DNA of 64,000 nucleotides. It comes from an uncultured Ilumatobacter sp. (lineage in GTDB: Bacteria > Actinomycetota > Acidimicrobiia > Acidimicrobiales > Ilumatobacteraceae). Both the position numbers and the translations under genes were made by a program. The stretch covers positions 161,457 to 225,456 of the forward strand of contig CAJQPY010000003.1 in assembly GCA_905480335.1 (NCBI GenBank), in the 5' to 3' direction. Shown here one piece after another: positions 34,888 through 44,537 of this stretch. Each line of letters starts with the position of its first letter. Position 1 is the stretch's first letter. The notes beneath the pieces were generated by a model. It saw only the letters and a program-made list of their open reading frames with translations. It had not been told where the DNA came from and ran no database searches.

Positions 34888-36366
34888 TCAGCCCATCCTT
34901 TTGTTGAGTAGCACGTTGACAGCTTTGCCGTCGGCCTGACCCCTCGACGCCTTCATCACCTCGCCGACCAGAGCGCCGCCCGCCTTTGCTTCGCCAGCGC
35001 AGAATTTGGCCCAAGCCTCGGGTTGTGCTGCGATCGCTGCGTCGACCATCGCTTCGAGTTCGGACGTCTCCATGGCTTCGAAGCCGAGCGCTGCAGCGAT
35101 CGCTTCAGGGTCACGTTCGTGGTCCCCGGCAATCATTGCGTCGAGTAAAATTTTAGCCTGCGTCGCTGTGATCGCTCCGCTTGCTTCCATGGTCGTGAGG
35201 ACAGCAAGTCGACCGGTCGGCACCACGATCGAAGCCTCAGGAGACTCCTTGACATGTTTGAGGGCCAGTCCAACGTCGCCATCTTCGCGACCAACGTTGA
35301 GAACGTAAACATCCTGATCGCGTTCCACCACGAGCATCACGGTCTCGGAATCCGCCGACTGACCGCTTGCATCCGCAAGTGCCGTTCGACGCGCTGCAGG
35401 TAACGGCGCCAGCTCGGCGCGAACTCGTTCGATCCATTCGGGACCCGGGTCAACCACGACCAAGTCAGGCTCTAGGAAGTATCGGTAGTCGTCGGCATCT
35501 TCCTTCGAGCGCAGGGTGTGCGTCTTGCCGTCGTTCTCGTCCCAGTGGCGGGTTTGCTGGATAACCGGCTCACCGGCCTCATGGAGGGTGATCTGGCGCT
35601 TTGCCTCGTACTCGATGGCCCGGCCGAGCGACCGAACCGAGTTGACATTCTTGATCTCACATCGTGTGCTGAAATCGGCCCCCGGCCGACGGACGCTCAC
35701 GTTGGCATCGACGCGCATGGAACCCTCCTCCATTTTCGCGTCGGACGCGCCAATCGCCACAAGGATCGCACGGAGCTCGGTTGCGTAGGCCTTGGCCTGA
35801 TCGGGATGACGGATGTCTGGGCGACTGACGATTTCGACTAGGGGAACGCCGGCACGGTTGAAGTCGATGAGCGAGTAGTCCGAGCCGTGAATCCGTCCGC
35901 CAACGCCACCAACATGGGTGGACTTGCCTGTGTCCTCCTCAAGGTGACCGCGCTCGATGCCGACCCGAAATCCATTGGGCAGGTCAAGCCATCCGTCGGC
36001 GGCGATCGGCTCTTCATATTGACTGATCTGATACGCCTTCGGCATGTCGGGGTAGAAGTAGTTCTTGCGGGCAAACGTTGACTTCTGAACTCGACAATTA
36101 AGCGCAAGCCCGAGGCGCATCGCAAGCTCAACAGCTCGGCGGTTGAGCACTGGGAGCGCACCCGGGAGCCCCAAGGTGACGGGGTCGATATTCGTGTTGG
36201 GTTCGTCGCCGAAGCGGTTCGGCGACGCAGAAAAGAGCTTCGTCTTCGTGGCAAGCTCGACATGCACCTCAAGACCGACGACCATCTCCCATCCGTTGTT
36301 CGTCCACCGCTCGTGGTCGGCATTCGACGGGTGGAACTCGTCGTCGTTCACGTAAGCAATCGTCAT
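34888..36366 (-). CDS. gatB: Asp/Glu-tRNA amidotransferase subunit B
   Basis: 492-aa ORF (WEMVVGLEVHVEL, GatB/YqeY C-terminal domain). Confidence 0.93.
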   Translation of the reverse strand: MTIAYVNDDEFHPSNADHERWTNNGWEMVVGLEVHVELATKTKLFSASPNRFGDEPNTNIDPVTLGLPGALPVLNRRAVELAMRLGLALNCRVQKSTFARKNYFYPDMPKAYQISQYEEPIAADGWLDLPNGFRVGIERGHLEEDTGKSTHVGGVGGRIHGSDYSLIDFNRAGVPLVEIVSRPDIRHPDQAKAYATELRAILVAIGASDAKMEEGSMRVDANVSVRRPGADFSTRCEIKNVNSVRSLGRAIEYEAKRQITLHEAGEPVIQQTRHWDENDGKTHTLRSKEDADDYRYFLEPDLVVVDPGPEWIERVRAELAPLPAARRTALADASGQSADSETVMLVVERDQDVYVLNVGREDGDVGLALKHVKESPEASIVVPTGRLAVLTTMEASGAITATQAKILLDAMIAGDHERDPEAIAAALGFEAMETSELEAMVDAAIAAQPEAWAKFCAGEAKAGGALVGEVMKASRGQADGKAVNVLLNKRMG

Positions 36367-36451
36367 CGGTCAACCTCGGTCATTTGTTGTGTTCTGGACC
36401 GGGTTGATCGTTGGGAAATTTGTTGGTGCCGGGGCGGCGCAGATCGTTTGA

Positions 36452-37900
36452 TCATGAATCGGCTCCCGTTGTCGGGGAACATCGTTCGAGCTCGCCCGCA
36501 ACGCGGAACATCATGGCGTCGTTGAGTGCTGGTGCGAGCACCTGCACGCCAACCGGCAGCCCACCGTCACCGGTCCCGAACGGAACGCTCATACCCGGGT
36601 CACCGGACAGGTTCGACGGAATGGTGTACGTGTCGCACAGGTACATGGCCAGTGGGTCCGATGACTTATCACCGATCTCGAAAGCCACTGTGGGAGATGC
36701 CGGCGTGAGCAACACATCGACCTTTGCGTATGCGGCGGCGAAGTCGCCTGCGATCAATCGGCGGATCTTCTGCGCTCGGCCGTAGTACGCGTCGTAGTAG
36801 CCGGCCGAAAGCGCATAGGTCCCGAGCATGATCCGCCGCTTGACCTCTGCGCCAAAACCCTCAGTTCGCGTGGCCATGTACATCTGATTTGTGTCTGGAG
36901 CAGCAACCCGCGTCCCAAAGCGGACCCCGTCGAACCGGGCCAGGTTGCTCGATGCCTCTGCCGGTGCTATCAGGTAGTACGCCGTGAGGCCGTAGCCGAA
37001 TGCCGGAACCTCGACATCGACGATATCGGCACCGGCGTCAGCCATCGCTTCAAACGCCTCGTCAAGCCTCGCCTGGACGTCTGGGCTGGCGCCGCTGGGG
37101 AGGTCGGTGATCCGGCCGACACGCAACCCGGCCACACCCATTTGCAGATTTGCCCGAAGATCGAGCGGTAGCTGCTCGATACTCGTCGAGTCGGCGGGAT
37201 CATGGCCAGAGATGACTTCAAGCGCCAGCGCAGCGTCGTCGACGGTCGTGGCGAACGGGCCAATCTGGTCGAGGCTCGATCCGAACGCAATGAGTCCAAG
37301 ACGGCTCACGGCGCCGTACGTCGGCTTGACGCCAACGGTGCCGCACAGTGCAGCCGGCTGCCGGATCGAGCCGCCAGTATCGGATCCGAGGCTGAGCGGC
37401 ACGAATCCAGCTGCGACAGCGGCGGCCGATCCTCCCGATGAACCGCCTGGCACACGGCTGGTGTCGAGTGGGTTCCTCGTCGGCCCAAAAGCAGAGTTCT
37501 CGGTGCTGGACCCCATGGCGAACTCGTCCAGGTTCGTTTTGCCAAGCACAATCGCTCCGGCCTCGCGCAAGCGCGTCACCACGGTGGCGTCGTACGGGGG
37601 CTTCCAGTTACCGAGGATCTTGGACGAGCACGTCGTCGGGATGCCCTGCGTGCACAAGTTGTCCTTGAGTGCCACCGGGACTCCTGCAAGGGGTCCGGGG
37701 TCGATTCCCGCCGCAACCATCTCATCGATGGATGAGGCGTTTTCACGTGCCTCGTCAGCGAGGACCAGGTTGAAGGCGTGGATTTCGTCATCGAGCGCGT
37801 CGATCGCGGCAAGGTGACGCTCAACAACAGCGGCGGCGGTGGTCGTGCCAAACCGGACCTCTTCGGCAATCTTGGCTGCGCTAATAGGTTCGTTCATCAT
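36452..37900 (-). CDS. gatA: Asp/Glu-tRNA amidotransferase subunit A
   Basis: 482-aa ORF with the amidase signature GGSSGGSAAAVAAG. Confidence 0.93.
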   Translation of the reverse strand: MMNEPISAAKIAEEVRFGTTTAAAVVERHLAAIDALDDEIHAFNLVLADEARENASSIDEMVAAGIDPGPLAGVPVALKDNLCTQGIPTTCSSKILGNWKPPYDATVVTRLREAGAIVLGKTNLDEFAMGSSTENSAFGPTRNPLDTSRVPGGSSGGSAAAVAAGFVPLSLGSDTGGSIRQPAALCGTVGVKPTYGAVSRLGLIAFGSSLDQIGPFATTVDDAALALEVISGHDPADSTSIEQLPLDLRANLQMGVAGLRVGRITDLPSGASPDVQARLDEAFEAMADAGADIVDVEVPAFGYGLTAYYLIAPAEASSNLARFDGVRFGTRVAAPDTNQMYMATRTEGFGAEVKRRIMLGTYALSAGYYDAYYGRAQKIRRLIAGDFAAAYAKVDVLLTPASPTVAFEIGDKSSDPLAMYLCDTYTIPSNLSGDPGMSVPFGTGDGGLPVGVQVLAPALNDAMMFRVAGELERCSPTTGADS

Positions 37901-38211
37901 TAATCGTTAAGCCCGAGAATCGGCGGGACGCGAAAGCGGCGATCTTCAGCAAGAGGTGCTGCGGCGAGCACCTCGTCGCGGTCGAGGCACTCCCCTACCA
38001 CGTCGTCACGCATCACGTTGGCGAGATGCGTCGGATTGTTCATCGGCTCAACACCGTCAAGGTCAAGCGCATCGATCTCGCCGAAGTAGTCGAGCATCGC
38101 TCCGAGTTCGGTCGTGGCAGTGGCAAGTTCTTCATCGGTGAGCGTGAGCCGGGCTAGCGCGGCAACCTTGCTCACGTCCGCAGGCTCGATTCGATTGGTC
38201 ACGGCCTGCAC
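37900..38211 (-). CDS. gatC: Asp/Glu-tRNA amidotransferase subunit C
   Basis: 103-aa ORF immediately upstream of gatA (1-nt overlap), with VAALARLTLTDEEL typical of GatC. Confidence 0.88.
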   Translation of the reverse strand: MQAVTNRIEPADVSKVAALARLTLTDEELATATTELGAMLDYFGEIDALDLDGVEPMNNPTHLANVMRDDVVGECLDRDEVLAAAPLAEDRRFRVPPILGLND

Positions 38212-38303: not shown

Positions 38304-40442
38304 TCAGTCGAGACGGGCGAGCGTGAACAGGACTGCTGACTCAGGGTGGAGCGTAGGCGGCTGGATGCCGTGGAACGCGAGTTGCCGACCCGACAGGGTG
38401 ATCCCCTCGGCCATCCAGACCGGCTGTGTTCGCCCTGCTCCCCATCGTTCGTGGGGAACTGGCAGATGCGCAACCCGGTACTGGGCATCGAGATCGAGAC
38501 CCGGCATCCGCAGCGGCGGCGGCGTCTGGCTCGGCGCTGTGGCGAGCTGTGCGAACGACACGATCGCATGTGAACGGTCACGGGCGTAGACACCGTGGGC
38601 GTTGAACGACGGGTCGGTGGAGAAGCGCACGGTGTCACCGCTGTGCAGCAACTCGCGGTGCTCCTTATACATCGCGATAATCGCACGCAGCGTTGTATGG
38701 TCCTCGTCGCTGAGCTCCGTGACGTCCCATTCAACGCCGAGGTGCCCAAACAGCGCTGTCGCGGCCCGGAACGACAGCGAGTGCGTCCGCCCAGTGGTGT
38801 GGGATTTGGTCGGCCCGATATGGGCACCCATCACTTCGGGCGGGATCAACATCGATGCACCCCGATGAATCGTCTGGCGTTCGAGCGCATCGTTGCAGTC
38901 GCTCGTCCAAACCCGCTCGGTGCGACGCAGGATTTCGTGGTCGATCCGGGCGCCGCCGCTCGCACACGACTCGAATTCGACTGCCGGATGCTTAGCGCGA
39001 AGCGCGTCGAGCAATCGGTACAGCGCAAGAGTCTGAGCGCGGGTGCCCGCTGCTCCGTCTCGCCCGCTGCTTTGTATGTGGTCACGATTCATGTCCCACT
39101 TCACATACGCGATGTCGTGATCACGCAGCAGCGCGTCGAGTGCCTCTTCAATAAACGCGAAGGCGGCTGGATTGCCTAAGTCGAGCACAAGTTGCTGACG
39201 ACCGAGCAACGGCTCGTAGCCATCAGTGATCAGCGCCCAGTCCGGATGAGCGCGAAACATGTCACTGTCCGGGTTGACCATCTCAGGCTCGACCCAGATT
39301 CCGAACTCCATGCCCAGACCGGTGACATGGTCGATCAACGGTCCCAGACCATCGGGGTACACCGTGTCGGACACCCACCAGTCACCGAGGCCCTTAGTGT
39401 CATCACGTCGCGAGCCGAACCACCCGTCATCGAGGACAAATCGTTCGATGCCAAGGTCAGCTGCGGCGTCGGCGAGCGCCTTCAGCTTGTCAACGTCATG
39501 ATTGAAGTAGACCGCTTCCCACGTATTCAATAACACTGGCCTCGGCGTCACGGTGTGGGTGTTGCAGGAACGCACTGCTCGGTGAAATCCCCACGCTGCC
39601 CGGGAGAGACCCGTGGGAGAGCACACAGCAATAAAGTCGGGAGTTGAGTAGCTTTCGCCCGGCTCAAGGACTACCTCGCCGGGGTGTAACAACTCGCCTC
39701 CCTGCAGATAGCGGCGGCCGTCGGGAAGCCTTTCGGCGAACAATGTGTGGTTACCACTCCATGCAACGTGAGCGCCCCACACCTCGCCACTCCACTCTGT
39801 GAAATCGCGTTCCCCGGCAAAGACGAGCGAAGGGGTTTCGTGAGATGTTCGTCCGCGTCGGTTCTCCACGACGTACGAGCCATGCAGCCATTCACGGCGA
39901 AGCGGGTGAAACTCGCGAGACCATCGACCTTCAAATGTGAGAAGTTCAGCGGCGTGCTCGGCGAGCGGCAGGGTCACTGACAGTGCGTCAAGGGAATAGC
40001 GCCGCCCACCAACATTTCTTACCGTCGCAGTTATGCGCAGAACATGATCGACCGTAATCGAAGTCGTGAGCGCTAGGCCGGCGAGTTCGTCGATGGCATC
40101 GACGGTGAGGCAACGCCCGACCTGTGAGTGGGAAACGGTCGAAAATCGAGGTGCCCATGCACGGCCACCGCCACGCCGACCGAGTAGCCCTGGTCGACCC
40201 GTAAATCCGGAACCGTGCTCTGGGACGACGGAAACCGGCGCAATTGCGTCACACGCGCCGTTGACAATTGGACGATCCAACGCTGGGCCAATGGATCCCA
40301 TGACGGCTTCGGCTCCGAGAGGTGTCCCCCAGTACAAAATCGTCGGAGCACCGGTCGAGACATCGATCACAGCCTCCACGTGAACGCCGGTCAGTTGGAC
40401 GAGTGCTGTCATCGCGGCCTTGTTCACTCGAGGCGCGTGCAA
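38304..40442 (-). CDS. alpha-galactosidase (GH36)
   Basis: 712-aa ORF with FVLDDGWFGSRRDD...GLGDW and a KWDMNR catalytic region. Confidence 0.88.
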   Translation of the reverse strand: MHAPRVNKAAMTALVQLTGVHVEAVIDVSTGAPTILYWGTPLGAEAVMGSIGPALDRPIVNGACDAIAPVSVVPEHGSGFTGRPGLLGRRGGGRAWAPRFSTVSHSQVGRCLTVDAIDELAGLALTTSITVDHVLRITATVRNVGGRRYSLDALSVTLPLAEHAAELLTFEGRWSREFHPLRREWLHGSYVVENRRGRTSHETPSLVFAGERDFTEWSGEVWGAHVAWSGNHTLFAERLPDGRRYLQGGELLHPGEVVLEPGESYSTPDFIAVCSPTGLSRAAWGFHRAVRSCNTHTVTPRPVLLNTWEAVYFNHDVDKLKALADAAADLGIERFVLDDGWFGSRRDDTKGLGDWWVSDTVYPDGLGPLIDHVTGLGMEFGIWVEPEMVNPDSDMFRAHPDWALITDGYEPLLGRQQLVLDLGNPAAFAFIEEALDALLRDHDIAYVKWDMNRDHIQSSGRDGAAGTRAQTLALYRLLDALRAKHPAVEFESCASGGARIDHEILRRTERVWTSDCNDALERQTIHRGASMLIPPEVMGAHIGPTKSHTTGRTHSLSFRAATALFGHLGVEWDVTELSDEDHTTLRAIIAMYKEHRELLHSGDTVRFSTDPSFNAHGVYARDRSHAIVSFAQLATAPSQTPPPLRMPGLDLDAQYRVAHLPVPHERWGAGRTQPVWMAEGITLSGRQLAFHGIQPPTLHPESAVLFTLARLD

Positions 40443-40445
40443 CGC

Positions 40446-41390
40446 TCAGATGAGCGGCTCACCCGTCGAGGGGTCTCCACCAGGGTCAATTTTAGTTCGA
40501 CTGTCGGTGCCTTCGAGATCATCACCCAGGCTAATACCGCCGACCGTGCTGTCGTCGGGCGCGTCGCCCAGAGGTTCTATCTCCGGTCGAGCGCGGAGCA
40601 CGAAGAACAGCGCCAGCCCGACGACAACCGATCCGAGTGCAACCCACTGATTCCAGCGGAACGGTCCGACGTCGTCAGCTGGGTCAACGCGCAAACCTTC
40701 GACCCAGAAGCGGCCCACCCCGTAGAAGGCCAGGTACAGCCCCATGAGCGAACCACCGCTGGGACGCCATCGGCGGTCGATGTACAACAGCACGAACACC
40801 GTGGCCAGACTCCATAACGATTCATAGAGAAACGTCGGATGGAAGGTAGTTCCGACTGCGAACAGTTCTCCGGTCGCCGGATTCTCGACTAGGTGGTCCG
40901 CATCAATCTCGAGCGCCCACGGAAGGTCGGTCGGCCGGCCGTAAAGCTCCTGGTTGAAGTAGTTGCCCCAGCGTCCGATCGCCTGCGCCAGCGGAATCGC
41001 AGGCGCCGCGCACGTCGCTGCTGTGGCGAACGGGATCCCCCGCTGTTTGGCCATGTATAGACCGACCGGGATGCCGAACAACAACCCGCCAGGAATGCCA
41101 AGGCCTCCTTCCCACAGCTTCGGGATGTCGGCGTAGTTATTCTCGAAACGATCCCAGTCGGTGGCGACGTGATAGAGCCGGGCGCCGATGACGCCCGCAA
41201 GCACCGCCCAGATCGCGATTGAGCTCGCATCGTCCTGGGTTCCGGCGCCACGTTCTTCCAGTCGGCGCCCGAACAGCCAGACCCCTGCCACGACACCGAA
41301 CGCAATGGCGAGGCCATAGATGTTCAGGCTCAGCGGGCCGATGTCGATTGAGTTGAACGACGGGCTCGGGATGGAGGCAAGCGTGCTCAA
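40446..41390 (-). CDS. lgt: prolipoprotein diacylglyceryl transferase
   Basis: 314-aa membrane ORF with Lgt-like motifs (YGLAIAFG, GRWGNYFNQELYG) and an acidic C-terminal extension. Confidence 0.88.
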   Translation of the reverse strand: MSTLASIPSPSFNSIDIGPLSLNIYGLAIAFGVVAGVWLFGRRLEERGAGTQDDASSIAIWAVLAGVIGARLYHVATDWDRFENNYADIPKLWEGGLGIPGGLLFGIPVGLYMAKQRGIPFATAATCAAPAIPLAQAIGRWGNYFNQELYGRPTDLPWALEIDADHLVENPATGELFAVGTTFHPTFLYESLWSLATVFVLLYIDRRWRPSGGSLMGLYLAFYGVGRFWVEGLRVDPADDVGPFRWNQWVALGSVVVGLALFFVLRARPEIEPLGDAPDDSTVGGISLGDDLEGTDSRTKIDPGGDPSTGEPLI

Positions 41391-42163
41391 CTCGTCACCC
41401 GTTCGATGAAGGCGAGGCTCCGCTCGTTGATCAGGTCACGGTCGTAGTCCTGCGTCGCAACATGGAAACTGCGCTCAAGCGTCACAAACTCGACGTCTCC
41501 GCCGGCGGTGTCACGCAAGTGCACACTGCTTTCGGGCGGAACGACGTGATCTGCCGACGACGACAAGACAAGAACCGGAATCCGCAACTCGGCGAAGCGA
41601 TCGGTGATCGGAGCGAGCCCATCGTTATTCAGTGACATTAGCTGGCGCAACGGGGTTCCCTCGTAGCTGATCTCGGTTTCGTCAGGGTTGGCAATGTCGT
41701 TGCCGATTGCTGGGGAGACCTCGATGCCGTCGGACAACATGTCCTCGAGCATTTCGACAACATCGGGGGGCTGTGGCATCGTGGCCGCGTTCACGCAGAT
41801 CAGGCCTTTAAGCCGACCGTCGTCGACTCGTTGCAGCCCAGTCCACAGCGCCAGAGTGCCACCCATGCTCAATCCGATCACAACGACGCGGTCGGCGCGT
41901 TCGACAAGTCGGTCGTACGCAGCTGCCGCCTCCCCTGACCAATCGAACCAATCGGTGGTCTGCATGTCGGCGAGCGTGGTGCCGTGACCGGGCAAACGAG
42001 GCTGCTCGACATGGTGCCCGGCGGCAGCGAACGCCTTGGCCTGGTGTGTCATCGACGAAGGATTTCCGGTGAACCCATGCACCACGAGCACCCCGGTCGG
42101 CGACGAACCGACATAGGAGAACGGTTCACATCCGGGTATGACGTCGACGTCACTCATCCCCAC
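41387..42163 (-). CDS. alpha/beta hydrolase (carboxylesterase/lipase-like)
   Basis: HGFTGNPSSM oxyanion loop and GLSMGG nucleophile elbow. It overlaps the lgt start by 4 nt. Confidence 0.8.
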   Translation of the reverse strand: MGMSDVDVIPGCEPFSYVGSSPTGVLVVHGFTGNPSSMTHQAKAFAAAGHHVEQPRLPGHGTTLADMQTTDWFDWSGEAAAAYDRLVERADRVVVIGLSMGGTLALWTGLQRVDDGRLKGLICVNAATMPQPPDVVEMLEDMLSDGIEVSPAIGNDIANPDETEISYEGTPLRQLMSLNNDGLAPITDRFAELRIPVLVLSSSADHVVPPESSVHLRDTAGGDVEFVTLERSFHVATQDYDRDLINERSLAFIERVTS

Positions 42164-42249: not shown

Positions 42250-43128
42250 TCAGCGAGCAGCGGCCTGGTGAGCGCGACGACGTTTGCCGGCCGCACGCAA
42301 CGCATCGCGGTTGTGATCACCGACCGCCATGAACGCGTCCCGCCAGTCGTCGCTCCCCCACCGCTGCGATGCCTGCACCGTCGTCCGCGGAGCGATCGAT
42401 GACTCGACCACATTAATTGCAAGCGTCACGATGTTGCGCTGCATTTCTTGAGCGCCTGGCTTCCCGCACGGATTACCCAGCGGAAAGTCAACGAAAACGA
42501 AGCGCGGGACCCCGGCCTCCTCGACGATGTCTCGGGCGCTCCCGACGACCACCGTTGCGATTCCTGCTGCCTCGAGGCGACGGGCGACCAGACTCACGGT
42601 CTGGTGGCACACCGGTCAAAGTGGAACGAGCAGCGCGACGTCGACGCCATCCTGTTCACACCACTCGGCGACCTGATCGGCGTCGAGCCCGGTCCGACGC
42701 TGGCTGTACTCGGTGGGCACACCGAAAAATCGGCCGTTAAGTGATCCGATCACACCGTCATCGGAGAGCGCCTGCAACGACGAGAGCGGCAGGAACGACT
42801 CGGTGTCTTCGGTGTGTGTTGCCTGCTTGTCCCACGAGAGATCCTCGGTGAACATCCGGTCGGGAACGTCGGCGACCGGATGGAAGTAAACAACCTTGTC
42901 GGTTGCGGGTGCACCGAAGTACGAATCGTGGTGGCGGAGAAACGAGGTGGTCACCACCGCGACGTTGGATTCGCTCATCAGCTTTGACGGACGGGTAAAA
43001 GGCACCTGGTCGAACGCCGCCCACCGATAAGCCTGCTCAAAGCCCTGCGCTTGGTAGTACTCCCGCGATTTGTCGATATAGCTGACGTGACTGCGCTGCT
43101 CCAGCTGGCGATCGGCTCGTTCGGTCAC
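42250..43128 (-). CDS. PrdB/GrdB-like reductase (selenoprotein B family), candidate selenoprotein with in-frame TGA at 42616-42618
   Basis: ORFs 42616..43299 and 42250..42612 share one frame and are separated only by TGA plus one Pro codon. Read-through gives ...DGVDVALLVPL-U-PVCHQTVSLVARRLEAAGIATVVVGS...FPLGNPCGKP, which parallels the clostridial PrdB motif U-G-T-C-H-R-S...EEAGIP as I recall it. The GTG start at 43128 lies 35 nt after the upstream stop. The alternative is a nonsense-mutated pseudogene. Confidence 0.6.
42587..42605 (-). promoter_or_regulatory. SECIS-like stem-loop downstream of the in-frame UGA
   Basis: The mRNA reads UGA-CCGGUGUGCC-ACCAGAC-CGUGA-GUCUGGU. This is a perfect 7-bp stem starting 10 nt after UGA, with a 5-nt apical loop containing GU, and it is extendable by 2 bp across a C:C mismatch. 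Confidence 0.5.
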
Positions 43129-43162
43129 ATGACAGAAGGTAGCCGCGCCGGCAGCGGTCGGG

Positions 43163-44233
43163 TCAGCTCGGCCAGGTGTCGGTGATGCGGTAGCCGAGCG
43201 GCCATGGATCCGTCGGGTCGACGCAGTAGTTAAACCGCCCGTATCGCCACGCCCGACCGGACACGATCGGCACGATTGCGTCTCGGGCGTCGGGGCCATC
43301 GCCGATTGTCGTGTCGGCTTCGATGCGTCCGACGAACTCCGACCCGATCACCGATCGCATTCGGAGTCGATCACCAACCTCCATCATGCCGCAGGAACGC
43401 AGCAGGGCCATCCGCGCCGACACGCCGGTACCGGTTGGAGATCGGTCGAGCTTGCCTGGCTCGACCACGACCGTGTTGGTCATCGAGTAGTCGCCGTCGC
43501 CGTGGTGTTCGAGCGGGCCAGCGATCTGACAGAACGAGAAATGGTTCCAGGCCGAGGCCGGATGCTCGAACGTCAGTTGTGCGTTGGCCGCCCGGGTAAT
43601 CTGCGAGCCGATGCGCGCCAGGGCCAGCCCGTTCTCGGGAACGATGTCAAGGCCGAGGTCGCTCGCATCGACCATCACGAAACTGTCGCCACCGAACGCC
43701 GTGTCGACGCGCAGGTCGCCGACACCGTCGACGGTCAGAGACACGTCGCGCTCTGCCACGAATGAGGCAACGTTGCGGATCGACACCGATTCCACCTTGC
43801 CATTGCGGCAAGTTGCCACCGCTTCGACCACTCCCCCGGGAGCATCGAGCAGCACCGTCGTGGTCGGCTCGGTCATCGTAACGATTCCGGCTTCGAGCAC
43901 CACGGTGGTGACGCACATCGAATTGGAACCGGACATCGGCGGGGTATCCATCGGCTCCATGATGATGAAGCCAATGTCGGCTGCGGGGTTGACCGCGGGG
44001 ACGAGCAGATTGATGTGCTTAAAGACCCCGCCTCGTGGCTCGTTGCCCAACAGCGACCGAAGTCGACCATCGCGTGCTACGAAGCGGGACTGTTCCCACA
44101 CGGTTTTGCCGGGCGGCGTGGCGATGCCCGAGACGATCACATCGCCAACCTCGCCCTCGGCATGGCAGCCGACGACCTCAATTGGGCCGGTGACGATGTC
44201 TTTTAGATCGACGTTCACCTCAGTACGGGTCAT
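43163..44233 (-). CDS. proline racemase-superfamily enzyme, dehydratase-type signature (3-hydroxyproline dehydratase-like)
   Basis: 356-aa ORF. PPMSGSNSMC is the first catalytic region and DRSPTGTG carries Thr instead of the racemase/epimerase Cys at the second position. Confidence 0.75.
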   Translation of the reverse strand: MTRTEVNVDLKDIVTGPIEVVGCHAEGEVGDVIVSGIATPPGKTVWEQSRFVARDGRLRSLLGNEPRGGVFKHINLLVPAVNPAADIGFIIMEPMDTPPMSGSNSMCVTTVVLEAGIVTMTEPTTTVLLDAPGGVVEAVATCRNGKVESVSIRNVASFVAERDVSLTVDGVGDLRVDTAFGGDSFVMVDASDLGLDIVPENGLALARIGSQITRAANAQLTFEHPASAWNHFSFCQIAGPLEHHGDGDYSMTNTVVVEPGKLDRSPTGTGVSARMALLRSCGMMEVGDRLRMRSVIGSEFVGRIEADTTIGDGPDARDAIVPIVSGRAWRYGRFNYCVDPTDPWPLGYRITDTWPS

Positions 44234-44537
44234 GTTCTGAGAGCGGGAGGGCCCACCAGTCGGTGGGCACGTCTGCCGCCGACCAATCGGGATGCGGGTG
44301 AATGCAGTCGACCGGACACACCGGCAGACACTTGTCGCATCCGCTACAGAGTGCAGGAATGATCACGACGTCGGCTCCATGGTTGAAGATTGCCCCGAAG
44401 TTTGGCGGGCAGTGCCGCAGGCATGCATCGCAGTTGATGCAATCGAGCATGTCGATGTACAGCGGCGGGTTCTGCCACTTCGGATTACGCTCTCGCCGCT
44501 TAATGCGCTCGTCGCGGTTGGTTGCGTCCCCAGCCAT
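44220..44537 (-). CDS. 2[4Fe-4S] ferredoxin
   Basis: 105-aa ORF with two CxxCxxCxxxCP motifs (CINCDACLRHCP, CSGCDKCLPVCP). Its stop overlaps the downstream gene start by 14 nt. Confidence 0.85.
   Translation of the reverse strand: MAGDATNRDERIKRRERNPKWQNPPLYIDMLDCINCDACLRHCPPNFGAIFNHGADVVIIPALCSGCDKCLPVCPVDCIHPHPDWSAADVPTDWWALPLSEHDPY

Follow-up and report, generated by a model that had tools for sequence, protein, structure and literature searches.

A predicted selenoprotein gene of the PrdB/GrdB superfamily with a conserved in-frame UGA and a SECIS-like hairpin in an uncultured Ilumatobacteraceae bacterium

A marine selenoprotein family and its Ilumatobacteraceae member

Selenoproteins named "Proline reductase PrdB" have been catalogued in marine surveys. 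The Sargasso Sea survey listed 42 of them, with a UxxC motif (Zhang, Fomenko & Gladyshev 2005, PMC1088965), and the Global Ocean Sampling (GOS) survey counted 235 selenocysteine (Sec) forms and 110 cysteine (Cys) homologues, which places the family among the most abundant marine selenoprotein families (Zhang & Gladyshev 2008, PMC2398784). "Proline reductase" selenoproteins were also reported from Anaeromyxobacter and Geobacter in a 2006 genome survey. Here, we describe a gene of this family on a 64,000-nucleotide stretch of DNA (contig CAJQPY010000003.1, hereafter the window) from an uncultured Ilumatobacteraceae bacterium (class Acidimicrobiia), where two adjacent minus-strand open reading frames (ORFs) are separated by an in-frame TGA. 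The two ORFs very probably form one gene encoding a 291-residue selenoprotein, in which UGA is read as Sec and is followed by a conserved hairpin that resembles a bacterial selenocysteine insertion sequence (SECIS).

A supplement example from the survey family (AACY01093821) reads ...AALLVPLuPVCHQTVGLVARHLESNGIPTVIAGSARDIIEQCGVPRFLFTDFPLGNP.... UPVCHQ is found 86 times in the GOS supplement and 14 times in the Sargasso supplement, and PVCHQT 55 and 13 times, respectively, in each case under "Proline reductase PrdB", and the window protein carries the survey signature LLVP(L/S/N)-U-PVCHQ(T/S)V.LVA..LE ... PRF.F.DFPLGN. By sequence, the gene is a new orthologue in a family catalogued as selenoproteins since 2005 and not a new kind of selenoprotein.

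The upstream ORF (42616..43299, minus strand) terminates in TGA 42618-42616, and the downstream ORF (42250..42612, minus strand) lies in the same frame with a GTG start one Pro codon (CCG) past the TGA; the ORF listing and the translation thus agree with the original prediction, which had described two same-frame ORFs split only by TGA and one Pro codon. Translation of 43128-42250 gives 292 codons with this TGA as the only internal stop, and reading through from GTG 43128 yields ...DGVDVALLVPL*PVCHQTVSLVARRLEAAGIATVVVGS...DFPLGNPCGKP..., with ...ALLVPL-U-PVCHQTVSLVAR across the Sec site. GTG 43128 is the likely start codon because the 170-amino acid (aa) fragments in the databases and the homologue of Ilumatobacter coccineus begin at the equivalent position. 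The gene and its predicted elements are as follows.

42250..43128, minus strand: complete predicted selenoprotein gene, GTG start 43128-43126, final TGA 42252-42250; a stand-alone member of the PrdB/GrdB superfamily
42616..42618, minus strand: in-frame UGA read as Sec, residue 171 and first of U-P-V-C, as predicted from conservation and alignment
42607..42609, minus strand: codon of Cys174, the putative partner in the U-x-x-C redox motif; a column that is invariant across PrdB, GrdF, and two Cys forms
42584..42608, minus strand: SECIS-like hairpin, stem 42605-42599 paired with 42593-42587, apical loop CGUGA at 42598-42594

Two scans of the window for a second TGA-interrupted gene with coding signal on both sides gave no convincing candidate. 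Long ORFs antisense to the selenoprotein gene (42417-42744, plus strand) are seen again in 80 related loci; they result from high GC content and codon structure and are not genes.

The in-frame TGA, its hairpin, and alternative readings

Protein searches returned two types of match. The first comprises dozens of 170-aa proteins with 72-99% identity that end in ...LLVPL, including RefSeq entries of I. coccineus and I. nonamiensis, and the second comprises full-length proteins of 285-311 aa with 47-57% identity. All 17 aligned full-length homologues have Cys in the TGA column (C-P-V-C-H-Q), and the site is TGC or TGT in the nine Cys-form genes that were checked on DNA. A genome collection with one genome per species was scanned with peptide patterns that do not span the TGA site; it gave 77 loci, 75 of which cover the site, and in 74 of these a TGA is followed by P[VI]CHQ[TS]. 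The TGA loci belong to Ilumatobacter and other Ilumatobacteraceae, other Acidimicrobiales, Syntrophales (including Smithella), and Myxococcota, with further loci in Pseudomonadales (OM182, HTCC2143, and Pseudohongiella), Spirochaetales, and Dehalococcoidia. A metagenome scan with a Cys-form query returned 76 loci, 74 with TGA and only two with Cys. Across the related loci, which span at least five phyla, the site is TGA in 152 of 152 and TAA or TAG in none.

The related loci have a median identity to the window protein of 61% after the TGA versus 46% before it, and in most of them the frame stays open for about 120-130 codons past the TGA. The closest genome match is an Ilumatobacteraceae metagenome-assembled genome (MAG) with 85% identity and conserved gene order. 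At least 20 independent metagenome contigs carry the exact 170-aa fragment with the same TGA end and identical synteny.

Searching plasmids with tblastn recovered annotated prdB genes of Terrisporobacter and the annotated grdF of Peptoclostridium acidaminophilum, which have an in-frame TGA (...VLLTAG*GTCHRSAVLVQRAIEEAGIPTVII and ...VILTST*GTCTRCGATMVKEIERAGIPVVHL, respectively). The former agrees with the PrdB motif UGTCHRS that had been quoted in the original prediction. In a joint alignment, the window TGA shares its column with the TGA of Terrisporobacter glycolicus prdB and of P. acidaminophilum grdF, and the Cys at +3 is invariant. The proposal that the stop falls at the Sec position of the family is therefore borne out: alignment with PrdB/GrdB and Cys homologues places the TGA in the Sec/Cys column of the superfamily, and relatives have TGA rather than TGC in all 152 loci, together with a conserved hairpin. 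These comparisons strongly support the Sec reading of the TGA, and both the UGA and the hairpin are maintained by selection across phyla.

Ilumatobacter genomes also contain a second selenoprotein paralogue with about 73% identity (L006 and L015, which are from the same MAG, 3300053784_11, and L007-L019). Its context is different, with flanking short-chain dehydrogenase genes, and it carries the same TGA and hairpin. Copies almost identical to this paralogue group occur in a Candidatus Azotimanducaceae MAG (L007) and a Gammaproteobacteria MAG (L014), where the flanking dehydrogenase genes match those of L009 and L013; these two are probably mis-binned Ilumatobacter contigs.

The RNA past the UGA reads CCGGUGUGCC followed by ACCAGAC-CGUGA-GUCUGGU, which gives a 10-nt spacer, a 7-bp stem, and a 5-nt loop with GU; folding finds the hairpin as it was first described. 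Below a C·C mismatch, two extra pairs are formed (42608-42607 with 42585-42584). The hairpin lies in the minimum-free-energy fold of a 45-nt segment (-18.3 kcal/mol, z = -1.93, 8 of 200 shuffles as good) and in that of a 66-nt segment, for which the single-sequence statistic is weak (z = -0.93). Because these statistics are weak, the evidence that the hairpin exceeds chance comes from comparison and not from folding energy.

Third-position entropy across 72 species-level loci is 0-0.5 bit in codons +4 to +9 (CAC CAG ACC GTG AGT CTG) and 1.2-1.9 bit in the degenerate (three- to six-fold) codons beside the hairpin. For example, Thr+6 is ACC in 66 of the 72 loci, and Thr+21 is ACC in 36, ACG in 29, and ACT in 5; Ser+8 is AGT in 67, and Leu+9 is CTG in 69. 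Over 127 distinct 45-nt sequences, 95.9% of the cells in a 9-pair helix are paired, versus 20-33% when the partner strand is slid, and there are compensatory changes (C15-G31 to U-A in ten sequences and A19-U27 to U-A in one). The stem has all seven base pairs in 127 of the 145 Sec loci scored and six of seven in 16 more. Nine distinct Cys-form genes encode a near-identical peptide (CPVCHQT.SL.ARHLE) and retain only three to six of the seven stem pairs, with AGC or TCN as the Ser codon, so the constraint on the hairpin tracks the UGA and not the peptide. These alignments show the hairpin to be under RNA-level selection. One Cys-form gene from Bradyrhizobium (P0112; L158:8001-8876) has ACCAGAC-CGTGA-GCCTGGT after its TGC, with six of seven stem pairs and the loop kept, and resembles a SECIS relic left by a recent Sec-to-Cys replacement; in other Cys forms the hairpin is lost.

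The alternative that survives best, although we consider it very improbable, is a split gene in which the UGA ends a 170-aa protein and translation restarts at a GTG to give a separate 120-aa protein, the hairpin serving translational coupling or mRNA stability. This GTG stands two codons past the TGA and is therefore why the ORF listing and several gene callers give a separate 120-aa ORF, and such fragments abound in databases. However, an ordinary stop codon would be expected to vary among TGA, TAA, and TAG, yet all 152 loci have TGA; all uninterrupted homologues have Cys in this column, in which PrdB and GrdF have their known Sec. The start codon is not conserved either, because GTG, GTC, and GTT interchange freely at codon +2, and the U-x-x-C motif would be severed.

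The database fragments have a plain source in annotation. With a Cys form as query, an exhaustive HMMER search yielded 1540 clusters (50% identity) at E<=1e-3 and 83 at E<=1e-30, and many cluster representatives stop one residue before the Sec column or begin just after it, which indicates that gene callers routinely split genes of this family. The RefSeq/GenBank Ilumatobacter orthologues P0043 (from I. coccineus YM16-304), P0026, P0018, P0021, and P0071 are cut at 170-173 aa with the Sec unmarked, and some gene callers add the separate 120-aa ORF (L170-L172, 10517-10879). The practical value of the present result is thus in annotation, since RefSeq and metagenome calls for the family are routinely cut at the Sec codon.

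A pseudogene that arose by a TGC-to-TGA nonsense mutation in a Cys-form gene, with a coincidental hairpin, was the competing explanation in the original prediction. Cys forms of the family do exist, and no Sec machinery was seen in the 64-kb window, but this explanation is excluded, with hardly any probability left to it, because the TGA is conserved in 152 of 152 loci across several phyla. The downstream frame moreover continues without a stop for about 120 codons, exceeds the upstream half in conservation, and shows no decay in close relatives; the hairpin codons are under synonymous constraint; and the exact 170-aa fragment recurs in the same synteny on the independent contigs. A sequencing or assembly error in the window TGA has a negligible probability, given the identical N-terminal fragment with the same TGA on at least 20 independent contigs and in all orthologues.

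Several points weigh against the selenoprotein reading. The single-sequence folding statistics are modest. The hairpin is mostly conserved and not covarying, so that the conserved H-Q-T-V-S-L peptide could in principle explain part of its conservation; this explanation is disfavoured because synonymous sites are frozen and the hairpin decays in Cys forms whose peptide is unchanged. Rfam gave no SECIS or other match for the whole window at gathering thresholds or for 42520-42680 at E<=10; bacterial SECIS elements are poorly represented in Rfam. The catalytic mechanism and substrate are purely inferred, and the literature searched contained no selenium incorporation data for the clade. Finally, selA, selB, selD, and tRNA-Sec were found neither in the 64-kb window nor in 1.86 Mb of related-locus flanks (ARAGORN on the window and 60 loci for the tRNA; tblastn with E. 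coli SelA, SelB, and SelD), and the only tRNA that ARAGORN reported in the window is a tRNA-Ala. The machinery is therefore not linked to the selenoprotein gene.

The lineage itself is documented to use Sec. I. coccineus and I. nonamiensis are both scored as SelD+/SelA+/SelB+ (Peng et al. 2016, PMC5029168, Table S1) and have 15 and 10 known selenoproteins, respectively (Table S2 of the same study), and Ilumatobacter is placed in the Ilumatobacteraceae, Acidimicrobiales. In the Actinomarinales, a sister order within the Acidimicrobiia, every Actinomarina genome contains selA/B/C/D according to a 2026 preprint. The earlier remark that few selenoproteins are described in actinobacteria thus does not apply to this lineage, in which Ilumatobacter is documented as Sec-using and rich in selenoproteins.

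Neighbouring genes, structure, and possible function

Three genes flank the selenoprotein gene on the same strand.

43163..44233, minus strand: proline-racemase-family gene (Pfam PF05544, E=4.8e-114), closest to trans-3-hydroxy-L-proline dehydratase (NCBIfam NF047722, 506.7 bits versus a cutoff of 550)
44220..44537, minus strand: 2x[4Fe-4S] ferredoxin gene (Pfam Fer4_7, Fer4_21)
41387..42163, minus strand: alpha/beta-hydrolase gene (Pfam Hydrolase_4, Abhydrolase_6), 86 nt downstream of the selenoprotein stop

The ferredoxin gene extends 14 nt into the start of the proline-racemase-family gene, and the latter ends 34 nt upstream of the selenoprotein start; because of this overlap and short gap, the three genes may form one operon. 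The ferredoxin gene is found upstream in nine syntenic Ilumatobacter/Ilumatobacteraceae species representatives, with or without an intervening gene, and the alpha/beta-hydrolase gene is syntenic in ten Ilumatobacteraceae species representatives. Only six of the nine ferredoxin-bearing representatives, the closest Ilumatobacteraceae, also carry the dehydratase-like gene, and no other phylum has it. A connection with hydroxyproline is therefore hinted at for this lineage only and is not a property of the family.

Clustering of neighbour ORFs from all loci revealed no partner common across phyla, only the gene itself, the antisense artefact, and scattered short-chain dehydrogenases. The gene contexts of seven Cys forms are all different. 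Farther along the window is a gatCAB operon (34888-38211, minus strand), in which GatB occupies 34888-36366 and the GatA amidase 36452-37900, followed in coordinate order by a 103-aa ORF (37900-38211, minus strand) that corresponds to GatC in syntenic contigs. The operon is downstream of a gene for a glycoside hydrolase family 36 (GH36) alpha-galactosidase (38304-40442) and lgt (40446-41390).

AlphaFold2 modeled the protein as an alpha/beta fold (predicted local distance difference test score 82.9, predicted TM-score 0.86). In this confident model, residue 171 is in a loop between strand 164-168 and helix 173-187, which is the usual position of redox CxxC motifs. A sequence search of the PDB gave chance matches only, and a Foldseek search with the model found no PDB entry with E below 0.01 and none with a TM-score above 0.3.

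By the mechanism established for bacteria, SelB with Sec-tRNA(Sec) would bind the hairpin on the translating mRNA, and Sec would be inserted at the UGA without termination. If PrdB and CxxC/UxxC oxidoreductases are taken as analogues, the selenol of Sec171 would act as catalytic nucleophile and form a selenenyl-sulfide with Cys174, and this Se-S bond would be re-reduced by an external reductant, which in Ilumatobacteraceae could be the ferredoxin encoded two genes upstream. It is conceivable, though we think it unlikely, that the stand-alone U-P-V-C-H-Q clade represents a selenoenzyme that works without a pyruvoyl partner and is not a proline reductase, and that in Ilumatobacteraceae it forms a unit with the ferredoxin and the trans-3-hydroxy-L-proline-dehydratase-like enzyme for ferredoxin-driven, Sec-dependent reduction of a hydroxyproline-derived imino acid (e.g., delta-1-pyrroline-2-carboxylate). 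If true, ferredoxin-driven imino-acid reduction would assign a role to a family that ranks among the most abundant selenoprotein families of the sea. The ferredoxin and hydroxyproline-dehydratase-like neighbours provide one testable lead on the substrate.

Comparison with PrdB, GrdB, bacterial SECIS elements, and the marine family

Curated models place the protein in the PrdB/GrdB superfamily at a distance. The best is the NCBIfam PrdB model TIGR04483 (E=1.1e-20, residues 48-242 versus model positions 24-219), with 74.2 bits versus an equivalog cutoff of 300. The NCBIfam GrdF, GrdH, and GrdB models match at E=1e-8 to 1e-12 (GrdF, 2.2e-12), TIGR01918 matches at E=4.9e-10 (39 bits versus a cutoff of 65.45), and Pfam PF07355 GRDB scores 20.8 bits versus a cutoff of 22. 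The protein thus belongs to a divergent clade of the superfamily that no curated model captures. The Pfam GRDB match aligns residues 26-167 to model positions 198-344 of 347, so the model ends right at the Sec column. This suggests that it was built from sequences truncated at TGA, which would explain the poor scores of the clade and of any C-terminal half.

The partners of the known reductases were searched for as well; true D-proline and glycine reductases have a pyruvoyl proprotein partner, which for PrdB is PrdA, and prdB is usually accompanied by prdC too. With tblastn, PrdA, PrdC, and the small prd protein of pTG1, together with GrdG and GrdX, matched nothing in the window, and the same queries gave only one weak PrdC-like match (L115) in the flanks of about 170 family loci. 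Judging from its sequence and context, the window protein does not represent a canonical subunit of D-proline or glycine reductase. The original assignment as PrdB/GrdB-like therefore holds for the superfamily similarity and the shared Sec column and fails for PrdB proper, as the protein reaches 74 versus 300 bits and no PrdA, PrdC, or GrdE-type partner is nearby. This family, abundant among marine and soil bacteria, bears the borrowed name "proline reductase", which is unsupported by gene context or by hidden Markov model scores. Our knowledge of Sec distribution or mechanism is unchanged by the result, and its biological value is modest.

Like clostridial PrdB (T. glycolicus pTG1; TIGR04483), the window protein has the Sec column with U-x-x-C-H followed by ...E.AGI.TV, and the homology extends over almost the whole length of PrdB. 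Unlike PrdB, to which it has 26% identity, it is longer by about 45 residues at the N-terminus and about 40 at the C-terminus, and it carries a DFPLGNPCG motif that is specific to its own family. The pTG1 gene order is prdC-prdA-x-prdB, whereas no prdA, prdC, or small prd gene is near the window gene, and the hosts of the clade are mostly aerobic or environmental taxa and not Stickland fermenters. With GrdB, GrdF, and GrdH (PF07355, TIGR01918), the protein shares the Sec column and a homologous C-terminal half (residues 26-249 versus model positions 196-428 of 431), but it is without their N-terminal approximately 195 residues and U-x-x-C-x-x-C extension, and no GrdE/GrdG-type proprotein, GrdA, or GrdX is near its gene.

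The hairpin resembles bacterial SECIS elements (E. coli fdhF type, bSECIS consensus of PMC1088965) in being located just 3' of the UGA and within the coding region. It also has a small apical loop with a G (here CGUGA), which begins 17 nt past the UGA. Its sequence is unrelated to that of the E. coli fdhF SECIS, which has a bulged U; the stem of the window hairpin, a predicted SECIS, is short and perfect and has no bulged U.

The closest match is the marine "Proline reductase PrdB" cluster, whose name was given by homology only. The window gene shares the motif, the architecture, the UxxC, and the pfam07355 similarity of this cluster and is by these features a member of it. What sets the window copy apart is its origin in Ilumatobacteraceae and, in that lineage, its position behind ferredoxin and trans-3-hydroxy-L-proline-dehydratase-like genes.

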